53,653 nt of DNA from an uncultured virus (IMG/VR IMGVR_UViG_2806310702_000001) (Duplodnaviria; Heunggongvirae; Uroviricota; Caudoviricetes): IMG/VR virus record IMGVR_UViG_2806310702_000001; one strand, 5' to 3'. Position 1 is the stretch's first letter. The number at the start of each line of letters is the position of its first letter. This document shows positions 25,004 to 32,533 of this stretch, piece after piece. The notes under the pieces were generated by a model, which saw nothing but the letters and a program-made list of their open reading frames with translations, did not search any database and was not told the origin of the DNA. The translations under genes and the position numbers were made by a program.

Positions 25004-25207
25004 TTATTTACTTGATTTGAAAAACGATGCAATAATACTTAATACTACTGTTACTGCTAGAGCTATTGGAAAATTTATAACTTTAATTGCAAAATAGATA
25101 GCTATAAAGTTCCATAATAACTTTATTAGCCAAGCTGTAAGGCAATATCCACAAGATATAGCTATTATCACTCCAACTACAAAAAGCATTTTTTTCAATT
25201 TAATCAT
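25004..25207 (-). CDS. Small membrane protein
   Basis: Two hydrophobic helices; overlaps the upstream stop. Confidence 0.6.
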   Translation of the reverse strand: MIKLKKMLFVVGVIIAISCGYCLTAWLIKLLWNFIAIYFAIKVINFPIALAVTVVLSIIASFFKSSK

Positions 25208-26244
25208 CCTTTCATTACAATATTAATGTATAATCTTCTTTTTTTATCATTCTCTTTTAATTCTTCTAAGTAATATGTTTTTATATTATTATAGTTTACT
25301 TTTTCATCATTATTGTATCTTATGATAGTATAGCAATAATCTTGCTTAGTATAATTTAACTTACCACAATCAGCATATTTCATAGGGTTGCACATACAGC
25401 CATTTTCTACAGCAAATATACCTTGTCTACGTGATACTATCATCTGACTTTGCTTATGAGTATGTCCAAATACTGCAACATCAAATTTTTCTTGTTTATT
25501 TAAGAAATGTGCAACTACTGACTCACATAATCTACCATCAATCTGTGAGAATCCTTTTGGATGGCATACTATTAATTTTTCGTCTAAATTTACATACCAA
25601 TGAGGAATATAAGTTATTTCTTCAATTCCTTCATAAGTTACTTTTTTATCATCTTCATAGATTGTAAATCCATCTACTAACATACTTAAAATATTAGGAT
25701 TTAAAAACTTTTGTAGATCCTTCTTTTGCATATTACAAACTTCCTTATATAATCTTTCTTCATGATTTCCATTAAATAATACTATCTTTTGTCCATTATT
25801 TAATATTCTTCTTACTTTCTTCAAGAAATTATATGCATAAATTAATTCTTGTACCAATGACATTCTTTGTACTTCAGGGAAACTTGATATAGCTTCACAA
25901 TCCATTAAATCTCATGCTATAACTAGGGTATCAATCTCATGCGAATGTTTTTGTATTATTTCTAATACATCTTTTCTCTCATATGGTACATGGAGGTCAT
26001 TTATAATCATTACATTTTTATCATATTTCTTATTTAATTCTATTAAGGTATCTTGTCTACCTAAGTTATAATCAAAACTACGACATCTTCTAGTAGATTC
26101 ACCTAGATTCTTACCTTCTGTTTCATTCATTAACTTCCATATTTTCTTATTATTTAATCCATATGCAACTTTGTTTCTATATAATCTAGCTTCATACTGT
26201 CTGATAGTTTCATTATCTTGTTTTTTAATTTTATTATCTAACAT
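25204..26244 (-). pseudogene. Calcineurin-like metallophosphoesterase interrupted by an in-frame TGA
   Basis: DLH, IA*DLMD (TGA 25912-25914 at the G of the GD motif), GNHE, GHTH. Confidence 0.8.
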
Positions 26245-27071
26245 TAATAAACTAATTCCTTTCTATTTAATTTATTTTCATATTTTTTTATAATGTCTGA
26301 AATATCTACATCATTATCTCTACATAATGCTACTATTGTACTTACTGCATTGGAAAGTTCTTCATCATGCAACATTTTTAAAGTTCTTGGCTTAGTCTTT
26401 TTACCTGTTGAGTTCATAAAATTTGTGATTCTAGCATTTATATTTATGCTATGTTTGTACAATATTTCTTTCTTGAACTTAGTCCATGCTTCACCAAAGT
26501 TACCTAATTTACTTCCGTAAGCTCTAACTAATGCGTTAATTAAGCTTCTATCAGCCCATTTTAAGTTCTCACCACTTAACAAATCATTTTCTTTATCTAA
26601 TATTTCATTATCATCTTTTAATTGTATTATTTGTTTTTGTTGATTTTCTATATTCTCAAATAAACTTTTAACAATAGTTTTATGTGTATCATCTAACGCA
26701 CCAAAATATGTATTAACCATTAAGTCTGCATTGGCTACATATCCACCTGTTTTACGAATAGTCTTTAATATCTTCTTAACTTCTTTCTTAAACTTTTTAG
26801 CAATTGGTTTTCTGCTTTGCATTAAGACTTCATACATACCATCCTCAGTTAAAAAATACATGTTCCTTATCTGACCACTATAATATATCGGTGAGGTTTG
26901 TTTTTCATCTTCATCAATTTTATTTAGCATTTGCCCCACTTTTGAAGTATCATAATCAATCATTTCAGCTATATCTTTTGCTAAGAATAATGGATTTTCT
27001 ATTGTTCCATAAATTCTAAAATCCTTATTAAACACTTTTCTTTCATCAATTACTTTTAACTCATTCTTCAT
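26244..27071 (-). CDS. BRO-N domain antirepressor-like protein
   Basis: FRIYGTIENPLFLAKDIA...FLTEDGMYEVLMQSRKPIAK. Confidence 0.88.
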   Translation of the reverse strand: MKNELKVIDERKVFNKDFRIYGTIENPLFLAKDIAEMIDYDTSKVGQMLNKIDEDEKQTSPIYYSGQIRNMYFLTEDGMYEVLMQSRKPIAKKFKKEVKKILKTIRKTGGYVANADLMVNTYFGALDDTHKTIVKSLFENIENQQKQIIQLKDDNEILDKENDLLSGENLKWADRSLINALVRAYGSKLGNFGEAWTKFKKEILYKHSININARITNFMNSTGKKTKPRTLKMLHDEELSNAVSTIVALCRDNDVDISDIIKKYENKLNRKELVY

Positions 27072-27307: not shown

Positions 27308-28012
27308 TTATGCTATATTATTTAAGTTATCATTTATTAATTGTAATCCTTGTTCAGTTATTCCAATATTCTTAAATCCACCATTATCATAAATCTTAAA
27401 GTATTTATCACCTTTGTTATTAACCTCTTTAATAGTTTTATGTATATAACCATTATTTTTTGCCCATCTTGTAATCTGCCCTTTTTTAAGATTAAATGAT
27501 TTGGTAGCATCTGTAATACTTGCTATTCCGTTTTTATCTAATCTTTTCTTAGCTAATGCAACAAGCGGTTCATCTTCTTCAATCTTTTTAATTAATAAAA
27601 CTTTTTCTTCTTGTTCCTTTATCCACGCCTTAGCTCTTTCAATAGGGTCTTGTATTAAATAACTATCAGTTTGATTTTGTTCCATCTGATTAAACTTTTC
27701 AACGTATTTAGCCGTGAATAAAATTCCCTTTTCACCTGTAAACTTATTAGCTATAAATTCACAACCCATTTTAGTAAATAAGTAGCATTTTCTTTCTTTA
27801 TTTTGTGTATCTTTATAAGTAGATTCTATGAAATATTTAGCCGGTGCAATTCCGTTCTCACCTAAAATTGGAATTATACCAATCATTCCTGCACTTTTAG
27901 AACCTTCTAATTTTCTAAGAATTAATTTATGTTCTACCCCTAACATTTTTGCCACTTCTCTACTATCAATTGTTAATTCTTTGTTGCTGTTTAAAACTGC
28001 TAACTTATTCAT
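27308..28012 (-). CDS. Rha family regulator/antirepressor
   Basis: TIDSREVAKML...CYLFTKMGCEFIANKFTGEKGILFTAKYV; DPIERAKAWIKE. Confidence 0.88.
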   Translation of the reverse strand: MNKLAVLNSNKELTIDSREVAKMLGVEHKLILRKLEGSKSAGMIGIIPILGENGIAPAKYFIESTYKDTQNKERKCYLFTKMGCEFIANKFTGEKGILFTAKYVEKFNQMEQNQTDSYLIQDPIERAKAWIKEQEEKVLLIKKIEEDEPLVALAKKRLDKNGIASITDATKSFNLKKGQITRWAKNNGYIHKTIKEVNNKGDKYFKIYDNGGFKNIGITEQGLQLINDNLNNIA

Positions 28013-28320
28013 AATTTATCAACCGTCCTTTTATAATATTATTTTATGGCGTATTTCAATTTTTATAAAGCAGTTACAAATACACAAAGTTATCAGCAAA
28101 ATATTAAATTTAGGAAGGTTGATATTGACGTATACATAGGTAGCTTGTCCTACATATACCACATCTATATGGAGTAGTCTTTTGATAAAGGTGTAACTAT
28201 CTCAAAAACACCTATCTACTATTTAGTAGATAATATATTCAATTTTATAAATACTAAAAGCCTACCAAATTAGTTGATAAACTTTATATTATTTATAAAA
28301 CATTTTAATTTAATTTTATT

Positions 28321-28354
28321 TAAAAGGGTGTGATATTTATTATTCCACCCTTTT
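28321..28354. terminator. Terminator closing the RNA cluster
   Basis: TAAAAGGGTG...CACCCTTTTA inverted repeat. Confidence 0.7.
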
Positions 28355-28379
28355 AATAATTTTGTATCATGCATTTTTT

Positions 28380-28885
28380 ATTCGAAATAAAATTCTAGTC
28401 AGACCCTTGGCTTATGCAGAACCTTAATAAATCTCCGAATACTCTCTCTGACAAAAAGTATTCTTCAAAGATAGTTAATACTATTAAAATTACTCACTAC
28501 TCCGAGAATATTCATAATCATTGTAGTTTTCATTTATATACTAATTTGCTTCACTTTTGTGCATATCACACTACTCATTACTACGGATTCATGACTTATT
28601 GCCATTCCTAATTAGCATTTATAAAAATGTTACAACATTAGTGAGGTTATTATTCACTCACCAATGTTGTAGTGGGGAGCGAATCACCCACCTTTATACA
28701 TTTGGCTCATATTTTGATTCTCCGCCACAGAGAATTTTTATTATTACCCCACACGTGAGTAATATAGTTGTTATTATATGATGGATTTGAAACAGTAGCC
28801 CACGTGTTCTTCCATTCCAATTACGGGTATCTACACCCCAAGCACACCGACCAATATGGTAGCATTTATAGCGTTAAGCTAACGG
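28380..28885 (-). ncRNA. Large structured ncRNA, ROOL-like; ends approximate
   Basis: About 500 nt with no credible ORF, raised GC, many hairpins, directly 3' of a tRNA; motifs resemble ROOL RNAs as I recall them. Confidence 0.65.
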
Positions 28886-28923
28886 TCATAATTTAATACC
28901 TAGTTTATACACTGATTAGGTAT

Positions 28924-28998
28924 TGGCATAGGTAGTAGGAATCGAACCTACATCAATAGTTTTGGAGACTATCATGTTAGCCATTACACCATACCTAC
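28924..28998 (-). tRNA. tRNA-Trp (CCA)
   Basis: Full cloverleaf GTAGGTA/TACCTAT, ATAGT-CTCCAAA-ACTAT, GTAGG-TTCGATT-CCTAC, encoded CCA end. Confidence 0.95.
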
Positions 28999-29018
28999 AT
29001 ATTATATTTAAGGGAGGG

Positions 29019-29109
29019 AGGATTGCATGAGATTCGAACTCACATCTCTGATTTTATCTAAGGGGGAGGTGTATATAAAATCAGTATTTTACCGTTAAAC
29101 TACCAATCC
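29019..29109 (-). ncRNA. tRNA-like RNA with extended anticodon arm and anti-SD loop
   Basis: GGATTG/CAATCC acceptor, D arm, GTGAG-TTCGAAT-CTCAT T arm; 10-bp stem CTGATTTTAT/ATAAAATCAG enclosing ATACACCTCCCCCTTAG. Confidence 0.8.
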
Positions 29110-29158
29110 ATATTTCCTATGAAATTAATCATAGGAATTTTTAATTATTTGTTACTCT

Positions 29159-29380
29159 TTATCCTTCTGGTATTTCTTCTGATTCTGTCTTTTCTTTAAA
29201 TGATAATACTCCATATTTTCCATTAAAATATTTGATTTCATCTAAATCAGTTAGTAATTTAAAGTCTGTGTCTTCCTCAGTTTGAAAATATATCTTACCA
29301 TCTTCAATTTTAAAGTCAACTTCAACTTGTCCAATTGTATTCTCAGTTCTTTTAAATTTAACTAATTTCTTTTCTGCCAT
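29159..29380 (-). CDS. Small acidic phage protein (possibly YonK-like)
   Basis: AAGGAG RBS; size and position after phoH as in SPbeta-like phages. Confidence 0.55.
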   Translation of the reverse strand: MAEKKLVKFKRTENTIGQVEVDFKIEDGKIYFQTEEDTDFKLLTDLDEIKYFNGKYGVLSFKEKTESEEIPEG

Positions 29381-29432: not shown

Positions 29433-29699
29433 TTAATCATTTTTTATAATAAAGTTTTCCCATTTTTTATAAGCATCCACATAAGTTTCTTTCTTATCTC
29501 CATTATGTGTTATCTCATAGTACATACCATCGCTTACCGTTGTACTTAACATCGCTTTATTATTCTGTAAAGTCTTACAACTCCACACAACAAATACGTC
29601 ATCTTCAGTAATTTGTTTCTTATCTGTTTTATCTGCATGTTGATTAAAATATTTTACTATAATCTCTTTGCATAATTCTAAAAACTTATCATTATCCAT
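29433..29699 (-). CDS. Conserved phage hypothetical protein
   Basis: VFVVWSCKTLQNNKA.LST...DGMYYEITHNGDK.E.YVDAYKKWEN. Confidence 0.75.
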   Translation of the reverse strand: MDNDKFLELCKEIIVKYFNQHADKTDKKQITEDDVFVVWSCKTLQNNKAMLSTTVSDGMYYEITHNGDKKETYVDAYKKWENFIIKND

Positions 29700-29714: not shown

Positions 29715-29848
29715 CTAATCTAACATGGTAAATACTTTACTTGCACTACTTCTTACATCTTCATCTAGTACAATTATTCCTACCAATGGATTGCCTTTTA
29801 ATTTTTCTATCATTATTCTTAAGCCATTATCTTTTATATATTTTTCAT
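29715..29848 (-). pseudogene. C-terminal remnant of phoH
   Basis: Reads EKYIKDNGLRIMIEKLKGNPLVGIIVLDEDVRSSASKVFTMLD*, a PhoH-like tail. Confidence 0.65.
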
Positions 29849-29896
29849 ACATTAACAAGAAAACACGTACCCTTTAGGGTAGGTGATGAATTGTTT

Positions 29897-30298
29897 TTAC
29901 CCTTGTTGCTGTATATATTTTTCTATTGTTTCTTTACTCACTTTACCAATACTACAGGCAAAATATCCATCACTCCAAAAAGTTCTTTCTTGCCAAAAAT
30001 GATTATTTAAATAGTATTGGGTTTTACCAACTCTCCAAACCCTATAAGTAGAAATTTGTTTAAACCATCTTACAATCTGCAATATTGATTGCGTTGGAGA
30101 ATATTGAACTAATAAATGGATGTGATCTTTGCCTACTTCCATTTCTATTATATTTAAATCTTTTTCTTCTGCTATTGCATAAAACAGTTTTTTAATATCA
30201 TCACCAAGTCTTATTAATAACTTTTTTCTATACTTACAAACAAATATCAAATGTGTCATTAATAAAAATTTACTATGATTTTTACTTATATATTTCAT
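29897..30298 (-). CDS. tnpA: Y1 HUH transposase
   Basis: HLIFVCKYR, DHIHLL, FWSDGYF, IEKYIQQQ. Confidence 0.95.
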   Translation of the reverse strand: MKYISKNHSKFLLMTHLIFVCKYRKKLLIRLGDDIKKLFYAIAEEKDLNIIEMEVGKDHIHLLVQYSPTQSILQIVRWFKQISTYRVWRVGKTQYYLNNHFWQERTFWSDGYFACSIGKVSKETIEKYIQQQG

Positions 30299-31634
30299 AA
30301 ACAAATCCTTTTTGGAATTTATAAGGTGTTAATAAATCCACTTTAGGCACTTTTTTAATCTCTTTAAGTGCAACATATTTACCACCATTTTGGCTTCCTT
30401 TTACTGTATAAATCTTACCCTCATATCTAACTAAATCATTTGGCTGATAGAAATATTTTTGTTTTCTAATTCTTCTTTGACCTTTTGAAATCTTCTCACC
30501 TCTATAAATTCTAAGGTTTTCTGTACTATGGTTTTTATTTCTAGTCCTTCTTCCACAGTTTAAGTCTCCACCTGAAACCTTATTACCAGTTCTAACATCT
30601 ATTATTTTACAATCATAAAACTTTTCTAAAGACCGATTATTCCTTCTTGCCTGCGATACATTAAATATATCATTATTTCTAATTTGATTAATTCCTTTTG
30701 CTATCGCAAATGCATCATTATAATGTGTTTTTTTAATTTTATGTGTAATTCTATGATTTTTAGTTATATAGCCATAGGTTATTGAAATGTTACTGTGTTT
30801 TTCTTTAAGAGTATTAATTAAATACCATCTTATCATGCTCATAAAAGTAGCATCTTTAAATCCTCTAACTTTTTTTCCATTTATGCACCAATCATAAAGA
30901 AATTTACCTTTTTTATGGTTAGGTGAAGTATGGCATTTACTACAAAGTGTAATTAAATTGTTAGGACTATCTGAACCACCTTCACTTCTATACTTAATAT
31001 GATGAATTTCTAAAATCTGTTCTTTAGACTTATTTTTACAATTAGGATTTTGACATTTGTGATTATCTCTATGAAGAATGTACTCTCTTAAGTTCCAGAA
31101 CCCCATCATTTCTCCTTGCTGATATTCTTCACCACTTATATTAGGGTTTTTGATTTTCTGTATATCAAAATTTGCTATTTCTACAACGCATTTTGTTATA
31201 GGTAGTACATTATATAAACTATCAATAAATTTAATATGACTATCTAATTTATGTTGTAAGCTAGGTGCTAACCAACCTTTGTGCTTACTTTTGGTTCTAT
31301 TATTCCATCTAGCTTTTCTATATCTCAATCTATTTCTTCTTTGCCTTCTATACATTGCTTTTTCTTGTATTCTATCTTTTATTCCTTGAAGAAGTTTAAC
31401 TTCACCAACTATTAATTCTTTCTTATCAGTTATTGCACTAAAACCTATATTCAAATATCCACTATCAATTCCTAAAGTTATTCTTTGAGTATAATTACTA
31501 GTTTCATAATTTAATTGAACAGTAAATGGTTTTAACTCTTTAACTATCGCTTTCTTATTCTTTAAAAGTTTTCTTGCTTTTGCTTCATTTGTTGGCATTA
31601 ATGGATTCCCATTAATATCTATTACATATACCAT
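30282..31634 (-). CDS. iscB: RNA-guided endonuclease IscB
   Basis: PLMP N-terminus, RuvC-I GIDSG, RRQRR bridge helix, RuvC-II VVE, HNH, RuvC-III HYNDA. Confidence 0.95.
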   Translation of the reverse strand: MVYVIDINGNPLMPTNEAKARKLLKNKKAIVKELKPFTVQLNYETSNYTQRITLGIDSGYLNIGFSAITDKKELIVGEVKLLQGIKDRIQEKAMYRRQRRNRLRYRKARWNNRTKSKHKGWLAPSLQHKLDSHIKFIDSLYNVLPITKCVVEIANFDIQKIKNPNISGEEYQQGEMMGFWNLREYILHRDNHKCQNPNCKNKSKEQILEIHHIKYRSEGGSDSPNNLITLCSKCHTSPNHKKGKFLYDWCINGKKVRGFKDATFMSMIRWYLINTLKEKHSNISITYGYITKNHRITHKIKKTHYNDAFAIAKGINQIRNNDIFNVSQARRNNRSLEKFYDCKIIDVRTGNKVSGGDLNCGRRTRNKNHSTENLRIYRGEKISKGQRRIRKQKYFYQPNDLVRYEGKIYTVKGSQNGGKYVALKEIKKVPKVDLLTPYKFQKGFVYEIYK

Positions 31635-31649
31635 AAAATTTAATCCTTT

Positions 31650-31894
31650 CAGATAATTTAACCTCACCTTTCGGTGGTAAGTTCTCTTCGCCAATGATTA
31701 AAAAGGTTTTGTATCTTTAACACACTTTTCCTGCCATCAGAAATGTTTAATGTTAAAGCGTAGTGTTCAAGACTAGAGAAGTATCTTGAAGTACCTATAT
31801 ATTCTTAATAATCGTAGTCATTTAAGACTTAGGCTATTCAACCGACTTGCAATTTCTTACAAGCCACTACCCTTTAGGGTAGTTGGCAGTTGAC
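31650..31894 (-). ncRNA. omegaRNA (HEARO-type) scaffold
   Basis: GTCAAC...CTAAAG...GGCTTG...AGCCTAAG...GACTACG...CATTGGCGAAG pattern upstream of iscB. Confidence 0.88.
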
Positions 31895-32476
31895 TTCTAT
31901 ATTTGTATTCATAAATTTTATCTAAATCTATATTATGTATTACTAAGTATTCATTATCTAACAATTCTAAGTAATTCTCATTATTTTCATATTTAATGTA
32001 TAAGTCGTTTATTTGATCTGTATTTAATTCTATTTCTCTATAACCTTTGTATTCTTCCTGTATATTTATACAATTATTCTTAATCTTATTTGTTTCTAAT
32101 TTAAAATAATCTCTTGCAATTAAATTGCACAATATGTCGTTTGTTGTAAATACTGCTTGGTTACCAAGTGTCTTAGCACACGCAATAATTAAATTATCAT
32201 GTGTAATTGGTAAATTTAATGATTCTACTAATTCATAATGTAATTGTTCAACTATAATTACTTCATATTTATCTTGATTTTCATTTAAAAATCTTACTAC
32301 TTGTCTTGCCTTATATTTTATCTCTTGATCCTTATTTGCACTTGTCTTAATATTTTCTAATTCATCTAATGTTATAGAAGATATGTAAAACTTATCTGTT
32401 TGCTTTCTAATGCAATCTAAGTTCTGTAATAGTATATTGGTATCATAAAACTTTATTTTCTTAATTTCGTCCATAC
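31895..32476 (-). pseudogene. PIN-PhoH N-terminal part, interrupted by the IscB element
   Basis: FYDTNILL, LDELENIK, DNLII, FTTND PIN motifs; frame runs into the element. Confidence 0.8.
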
Positions 32477-32533
32477 CATTCACATTTACCCTTTCATTAT
32501 ATAATAGGGGAAGAATAAACTTCCCCATATGTC

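Follow-up and report, generated by a model that had tools for sequence, protein, structure and literature searches.

The locus analyzed here raises the question of whether a block of roughly 500 nucleotides that follows two tRNA-type genes in a viral genome is one large structured RNA or is composed of several smaller parts. The window, i.e. the whole stretch of DNA that was analyzed, comprises 53,653 nucleotides of an uncultured virus assigned to the Caudoviricetes (IMG/VR record IMGVR_UViG_2806310702_000001). In a sequence-only reading, the block at positions 28380-28885 had been described as an 'ornate' RNA that resembles ROOL and is released from a tRNA-containing transcript. The analysis described below indicates that the block probably forms the non-coding tail of a minus-strand phage tRNA operon and is a mosaic of separable cassettes, one of which is a drum RNA. 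The features of the locus and of the surrounding genes are collected in Table 1.

The descriptive part of the sequence-only reading was reproduced. The GC content of 28380-28885 is elevated (0.346 vs 0.260 for the whole window), and just 0.4% of all 506-nt windows reach 0.346 or more. The coding (minus) strand is free of ORFs as claimed, with 16, 21 and 16 stop codons in the three frames of 28366-28923 and a longest listed minus-strand ORF of 37 aa. On the plus strand, open stretches of up to 78 codons are found, including a 74-aa ORF with a TTG start (28557-28781) that extends into sequence not common to the 3859/11-type relatives. An inverted-repeat search recovered both the long hairpin (15-nt arms, 28631-28645/28657-28671) and the terminator hairpin (28320-28335/28341-28356), and the helices ATTCTC/GAGAAT, ATTAC/GTAAT and GAATACT/AGTATTC all appear in predicted folds. 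The five minus-strand motifs that had been likened to ROOL are likewise present (28826-28843, 28672-28691, 28579-28598, 28509-28519 and 28395-28409). Read on the minus strand, the single mismatch of the long hairpin becomes a G.U pair, whereas on the plus strand it is A.C; several helices share this asymmetry, which fits a transcript that runs in the same direction as the genes. Nevertheless, the folding energy of the block is only modestly better than that of shuffled sequences and shows no preference for the minus strand. The z-scores were -2.19 (minus) and -3.89 (plus) for 28366-28923, -2.35 (minus) and -2.12 (plus) for the combined modules A1 and A2 (28625-28892), and -0.16 (minus) and +0.15 (plus) for the spacer (28474-28624).

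Table 1. Positions of the non-coding elements and neighboring genes in the window, with the basis of each assignment
Feature	Positions	Strand	Basis and properties
Promoter-like site (GTAACA, 16 nt, TATGAT)	29128-29155	-	Consensus scan, 9/12 matches
tRNA-like RNA, 91 nt	29019-29109	-	Rfam tRNA model, 48.5 bits; 21-nt insertion
tRNA-Trp, anticodon CCA, encoded 3' CCA	28924-28998	-	ARAGORN; Rfam tRNA model, 65.8 bits
AU-rich hairpin (AUACCUA...UAGGUAU), directly 3' of tRNA-Trp	28896-28923	-	Fold
Module A1	28811-28892	-	Most conserved piece; GC 0.427
Module A2, four hairpins	28625-28810	-	Alignment and folds; GC 0.366
A2 hairpins	28742-28764, 28717-28735, 28672-28691, 28631-28671 (15-bp)	-	Folds
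AT-rich spacer	28474-28624	-	GC 0.278 (background), folding z about 0
Drum RNA (RF02958), 108 nt	28366-28473	-	51.5 bits vs gathering 43, model positions 1-112; GC 0.315
Terminator-like hairpin with A-/U-tracts	28320-28356		16-nt arms, 88% complementary, 5-nt loop
Rha/KilAC antirepressor	27308-28012	-	Pfam
BRO protein	26244-27071	-	Pfam
DUF6275 protein	29433-29699	-	Pfam
IS200-type (Y1) transposase	29897-30304	-	Pfam
IscB-type RRXRR+HNH protein	30282-31694	-	Pfam
HEARO RNA, belonging with the IscB-type protein	31677-31894	-	Rfam

Covariance-model matches and the drum RNA

The whole window was searched with cmscan against Rfam 15 at the gathering thresholds, and positions 28000-29300 were additionally searched with permissive settings at E≤10. 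Four matches were obtained at gathering in the window, namely HEARO RNA, drum RNA, tRNA-Trp and another tRNA-like match, and beyond the gathering matches the permissive search of 28000-29300 returned noise only; neither search yielded a ribozyme. The drum match is full-length and lies above the curated cut-off, and by covariance model the drum portion of the block is a member of this known family. The corresponding drum of Clostridium phage D-1873 scores 47.7 bits. The GAATACT/AGTATTC hairpin and the CAAGGGTCTGACTAG motif, which had both been listed in the sequence-only reading, lie inside the drum RNA. The passages of PMC5737381 that deal with drum describe a highly conserved motif of unknown function that is followed by a Rho-independent terminator, and the terminator hairpin 3' of the window copy agrees with this description. 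Among the strongly conserved positions of the consensus, UGAAG, GGAG, GGUU and UAG are kept in the window copy, whereas GCCAAGG replaces ACCaCAA and CGAAUAAAAA replaces CGAAAGAAAA. Due to these altered positions, the window drum was missed by the core pattern that was employed for the scan of IMG/VR. In the literature searched, drum had not been the subject of a functional study, and this clostridial phage locus had not been described; PMC6429828, which analyzes C. novyi NT, mentions neither 'phage' nor 'drum'.

The proposed likeness to ROOL or GOLLD was not borne out. Neither the ROOL model (RF03087, 574 positions, gathering 99.1 bits) nor the GOLLD model (RF02032, 416 positions, gathering 150 bits) matched the window at gathering or positions 28000-29300 at E≤10 with permissive filters, and none of five related phage/plasmid records matched either model at E≤1. 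The entry for ROOL in PMC5737381 gives a length of about 580 nt and a location near tRNAs, often in prophages, and the block comes close to this entry in being an ORF-free stretch of about 525 nt directly after tRNA-Trp in a Firmicute prophage. GOLLD, which is named together with ROOL and OLE as the subject of a cryo-EM preprint (10.1101/2024.12.08.627333), shares the phage and tRNA context. Such a context is not diagnostic, however, and the remaining properties of the block differ from both classes. Covariance-model similarity is absent from the block and from its relatives, a part of the block belongs to another family, the parts occur independently and in varying order, and the block has no supported multi-junction or long-range architecture. 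Its conserved units are also much smaller than GOLLD. The idea that the block is a divergent member of ROOL or GOLLD is consequently regarded as extremely improbable, and covariance models, to the extent that they can test this membership, refute it. Of the sequence-only reading, it can be retained that a clostridial (Firmicute) phage carries, beside its tRNAs, a non-coding RNA locus on the minus strand that is bounded by a terminator hairpin and includes a curated structured RNA. The locus can thereby be struck from the ROOL candidates, and one part of it now has a place in a curated family.

Drum RNAs at other loci were collected for comparison. In a sample of Clostridiaceae genomes, drum scored above the cut-off in 2 of the 150 genomes scored, in both cases 120-200 nt after a shared protein of about 460 aa. 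This protein has no Pfam, NCBIfam or firm PADLOC match, and tblastn detected neither a homolog nor a remnant of it in the window. An association of drum with a particular nearby protein gene is mentioned in the drum passages of PMC5737381. The drum-core pattern retrieved 16 loci from IMG/VR, all of which score at or above the cut-off, a sample that is biased to canonical cores of the kind that the window copy does not have. At these loci, drum is an element on its own that is usually located 100-200 nt after a protein gene, and the neighbors vary without a single partner; they include RNA ligase, metallophosphoesterase-like, PhoH and FRG/PDC-S15 proteins as well as a PBECR4 nuclease, integrases and endolysins. 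Of the 16 loci, 9 carry tRNA matches on the same strand within 2.5 kb of drum; as several loci are identical, these 9 amount to 3 of 8 sequence groups. The presence of drum in a phage tRNA region is thus a recurring arrangement. The window provides one more case, and this context narrows where to look for the function of drum. As a difference from the drum family as described, the window copy is preceded by about 415 nt of lineage-specific non-coding sequence.

Two of the collected arrangements deserve separate mention. At one locus (L030:1243-3215), drum is situated between an FRG-domain protein, which belongs to the PADLOC candidate defence family PDC-S15, and a protein of the PBECR4 nuclease family, which is a hint that some drum RNAs may occur in the context of conflict systems. 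At three loci (L026, L028 and L036), a DUF3800-XI RNA match of 62.5 bits (cut-off 37.8) at positions 2540-2587 begins inside the last bases of the drum match, so that at these loci drum is followed by another catalogued motif.

A further group of IMG/VR loci (L031, L032, L034, L037 and L038) has a bearing on the size of the RNA in question. Here, 430-545 nt of conserved ORF-free sequence lie between tRNA-Met and drum within a tRNA array (L031:1999-2432, L032:1889-2432), and this sequence consists of three near-invariant blocks with variable insertions between them. No Rfam family matched the L032 stretch at E≤1, and a profile of the two blocks nearest to drum (A6) revealed no nhmmer similarity to the window. 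The stretch could represent a larger RNA that contains drum as its 3' domain, and on account of this group drum is considered able to form the 3' part of something longer.

Modular anatomy of the sequence upstream of drum

The approximately 415 nt outside drum divide at sharp breakpoints when they are aligned with relatives. The closest relative is a contig of Clostridium phage D-1873, which is 95% identical to window positions 28302-28897, and parts of the block recur in the plasmid-type prophages p1BKT015925, p1 of 3859/11 and p1 of BKT2873 of C. botulinum group III. Module A1 holds the hairpins UAGC-UUAAC-GCUA and GGG(R)UGUAGAU(R)CCC and is present in all six phage/plasmid arrangements of the family. 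Module A2, whose hairpin at 28742-28764 reads UAUUACUC-ACGUGUG-GGGUAAUA, is kept at 90-95% identity in D-1873, 3859/11 and BKT2873. BKT015925 and another arrangement (L011) have no A2 and show a different hairpin in its place; both carry A1 alone. In 3859/11 and BKT2873, A1 and A2 occur without the spacer and without drum. The spacer was seen only in the window, in D-1873 and in near-identical contigs, and one public contig contains the spacer and diverges at about 28483, just before drum. Among the family arrangements, drum is restricted to the window and D-1873, and a drum search in the four other family records found none.

Pattern scans for A1 in IMG/VR yielded 6 and then 8 contigs, while the scans of genome contigs and of metagenome contigs yielded none. 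A hairpin pattern with two variable pairs led to two more IMG/VR contigs, L047 and L049, with the same sequence across the locus; both are otherwise unrelated to the window. They contain A1 with 94.5% identity over 73 nt, and the first approximately 80 nt of A2 (79% identity) are located directly 5' of A1, which is the reverse of the order in the window. The 2.4-kb locus of L047 has nothing else in common with the window, and no drum was detected in the L047 and L049 records in a search in which the D-1873 positive control was detected. These comparisons show that the pieces of the block can exist apart from one another and change their order, both in related phages and in unrelated ones. Other searches added little. 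Sensitive blastn against phages and plasmids returned only C. botulinum group III records and tRNA-Trp look-alikes. Of 151 Clostridiaceae genomes, 148 were scored with a covariance model of A1 and A2 and gave no match, a weak search with 11 candidates for each genome; the model also found nothing new in the collected loci. An nhmmer profile of A1 and A2 matched no other drum locus.

The L047 locus itself (790-1660 on the minus strand, identical in L049) consists of about 1 kb of ORF-poor sequence after a gene that is terminase-like by its translation. A perfect TTGACA/TATAAT promoter, as read from the sequence, stands ahead of the RNA elements. They begin with two truncated tRNA-like minihelices without anticodon arms, which score 28.0 and 21.9 bits with the tRNA model against a cut-off of 29. 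The third element has an acceptor-plus-T-arm shape and is homologous to A2 of the window; A1 follows, and a terminator is located near 790-815. In this A2 homolog, a 7-bp acceptor stem is combined with the T-arm-like hairpin ACUGG-UUCGAAG-CCAGU, and the same stem is degenerate in the window.

Compensatory base changes were used as a measure of structural conservation. RNAalifold predicted 69 pairs from the four full A1 and A2 sequences, none of which showed a compensatory change. At the level of single hairpins, all 8 pairs of the hairpin at 28742-28764 are kept in five sequences including L047, with two compensatory pairs, and the adjoining stem is broken in L047. In A1, a single pair of the 4-bp hairpin UAGC/GCUA is compensatory, having changed from G-C to A-U in two of seven sequences. 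With the minimum free energy (MFE) fold of A1 and A2 in the window as the reference, 21 distinct substitutions affect paired positions, of which 10 keep and 11 break the pair; 14 further substitutions fall on unpaired positions, and the stems are therefore not spared. The power of such an analysis is low, because the homologs are few and close (79-95% identity). No long-range pair with a compensatory change was found. The compensatory changes thus support two local hairpins and not an ornate architecture.

These results bear directly on the possibility that the block is one new large structured RNA of about 530 nt, a ROOL/GOLLD-like 'ornate' class of its own that has drum as its 3' domain and is freed from a tRNA precursor. 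Such an RNA would be in line with a contiguous, ORF-free and GC-elevated sequence on one strand that is free of internal promoter- and terminator-like sites, with the similar layout of tRNA, conserved ORF-free sequence and drum in the L031 group, and with the modestly favorable folding of A1 and A2. The pieces, however, occur apart and in another order, the spacer gives no folding signal, and the plus strand folds equally well or better. The resemblance to the L031 group is one of layout, as the upstream sequences share no nhmmer similarity and the A1 and A2 profile matches no other drum locus. Parts that turn up alone as well as in both orders are not readily compatible with a defined long-range fold, and compensatory change at long-range pairs is missing. 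A single large RNA is therefore considered improbable. The specific claim of one ornate RNA of about 500 nt is not upheld, given that its 3' 108 nt are drum, the rest occurs separately or reordered, the spacer gives no folding signal and compensation is only local.

The opposite extreme is a block that, apart from drum, has no function as RNA and consists of decayed tRNA-like genes and conserved 'linker' DNA where the mosaic phages recombine. The breakpoints of all variants coincide with the edges of A1, A2 and drum, the A2 homolog of L047 reads as an acceptor stem and T-arm in a row with truncated tRNA-like minihelices, and the degenerate stem of the window would fit decay. Half of the substitutions break pairs of the MFE fold, and neither the 148 scored Clostridiaceae genomes nor two metagenome pattern scans yielded a homolog. 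The conservation of A1 at 94.5% identity within a locus that is otherwise unlike the window, against 79% in the adjoining piece of A2, is difficult to explain in this way, as are the two hairpins that keep their pairing via compensatory changes, the GC content well above background and the promoter that precedes the elements of L047. We therefore regard a non-functional linker as a doubtful explanation. In the preferred reading of a mosaic operon tail, A1 may be a small conserved element in its own right.

A more far-reaching version of the modular reading, which is put forward as speculative and unlikely, treats A1, the hairpins of A2, the anticodon-less tRNA look-alikes and drum as cassettes that are traded by clostridial phages and that each yield a small stable RNA. 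Such small RNAs would act, for example, as mimics or decoys against RNA-targeting defences of the host. If this were true, A1 would constitute a new family of small RNAs in view of its near-identity in an otherwise unlike locus. For the assessment of other candidates of the type 'large RNA next to a tRNA', the mosaic outcome is of relevance in any case: what looks like a single large ornate RNA can be assembled from small cassettes.

Transcription signals, processing and genomic setting

The promoter-like site is located approximately 20 nt upstream of the tRNA-like gene, and its TATGAT element and the leader are kept in six variants. Promoter-like sites are no more numerous in the scanned region than in shuffled sequences, and this one is the sole site on the minus strand that lies upstream of and close to the tRNA genes; its function as a promoter is accordingly putative. 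Between 29051 and 28069, the consensus scan detected no further promoter-like site on the minus strand, and no terminator-like site was found between tRNA-Trp and the hairpin at 28320-28356. That hairpin starts 9 nt after drum and ends the non-coding unit, and a simple terminator scan did not list it.

The tRNA-like RNA was not called by ARAGORN. Its acceptor, D and T arms are normal, and the 'anticodon' stem is extended to 10 bp and carries a 17-nt C-rich loop with the motif CCUCC, which resembles the anti-Shine-Dalgarno end of 16S rRNA. The gene is kept in six phage/plasmid variants, with tRNA-model scores of 47.6-51 bits in four relatives, and its acceptor and T stems show wobble as well as compensatory changes. 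Directly after it, a C-rich trailer (UCCCUCCCUUA) was observed. The tRNA-Trp is also kept in the six variants, and the AU-rich hairpin that follows it may act as a weak terminator or mark a site of processing. An unrelated phage contig contains a hairpin with the same loop words AGUGUAUAAAC and a different stem. Relatives with a 1-kb insertion part from the window in or just past the AU-rich hairpin (breakpoint at query position 228/254). This insertion of about 1 kb, which includes a 212-aa ORF without a Pfam match, separates tRNA-Trp from A1 in four of the six arrangements (D-1873, 3859/11, BKT2873 and L011), and only in the window and BKT015925 does A1 follow tRNA-Trp directly. The earlier suggestion that tRNA processing releases the 5' end of the RNA is weakened by these four arrangements. 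In the window, co-transcription with the tRNAs is plausible, as no promoter- or terminator-like site interrupts the sequence from tRNA-Trp to 28356. The contigs of two presumed-RNA sequencing runs cover 28894-29084 only, i.e. the tRNA part.

Taken in minus-strand order, the operon would begin with the promoter-like site and continue through the tRNA-like RNA, tRNA-Trp, the AU-rich hairpin, A1, A2, the unstructured AT-rich spacer and drum to the intrinsic-terminator-like hairpin. The whole stretch would be transcribed as one precursor from the tRNA promoter, an assumption that is based on the lack of promoter- and terminator-like sites between tRNA-Trp and 28356 and that would suit a single RNA of about 530 nt equally well. 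RNase P and other host RNases would then cut the precursor into small stable RNAs. The terminator-capped drum is the likely main functional product and would act in trans, A1 would represent a second, independently selected small element, and the spacer and part of A2 would be linker or decaying material.

The genes that surround the block are all encoded on the minus strand of the AT-rich window (GC 0.260). Immediately downstream of the block follow the genes for the Rha/KilAC antirepressor and the BRO protein, an arrangement on which a further reading is based. In the plasmid prophages P1, P7 and P4, immunity RNAs of the c4/CI type are small RNAs upstream of an antirepressor gene, and these regions adjoin RNase P substrates. 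By analogy to c4 RNA of P1, the block could encode an immunity RNA that regulates the antirepressor at 27308-28012 in cis or in trans. The phage belongs to a family of plasmid-type prophages, and in the antirepressor leader itself the ribosome-binding site would be paired within a hairpin (28017-28029 with 28112-28124). The terminator hairpin separates the block from the antirepressor gene, however, and the energies of the duplexes that the block could form with two leaders were matched by 13 of 60 and 7 of 60 shuffled sequences. Inverted repeats shared by the block and the leader are AT-rich, 77-89% complementary and similar to dozens of others in the region. In addition, 3859/11 and BKT2873 keep A1 and A2 at a location without a Rha gene, and no C4-type family was among the cmscan matches at E≤10. 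An immunity RNA is for these reasons a very improbable interpretation, and a mosaic operon tail is retained as the preferred one.

The leader hairpin of the antirepressor is an observation in its own right. Its 13-nt inverted repeat is 92% complementary and would pair the Rha ribosome-binding site with an upstream CCUUCC stretch, which may provide translational control of the antirepressor.

The locus belongs to the family of toxin-converting phages and plasmids of Clostridium botulinum group III, and no toxin genes are involved in the findings reported here. Some differences between the window and its relatives were noted in neighboring genes. A PhoH-family gene (window 29718-32528, minus strand) is interrupted by an IS200/605-type element that consists of HEARO RNA, the IscB-like gene and the Y1 transposase gene. 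Residues 1-219 of the D-1873 PhoH-family protein correspond to 32528-31872 and residues 385-427 to 29846-29718; the middle part is absent from the window. The plasmid NZ_CP063960.1 contains a match to group-II-D1D4-1 (RF01998, 71.6 bits) at 112531-112616, which suggests a group II intron in this replicon. Finally, D-1873 encodes one 1029-nt Ser/Thr phosphatase-family gene after the BRO gene, where the window contains two ORFs of 110 and 233 aa (25204-26244, minus strand), and this gene may be split in the window.
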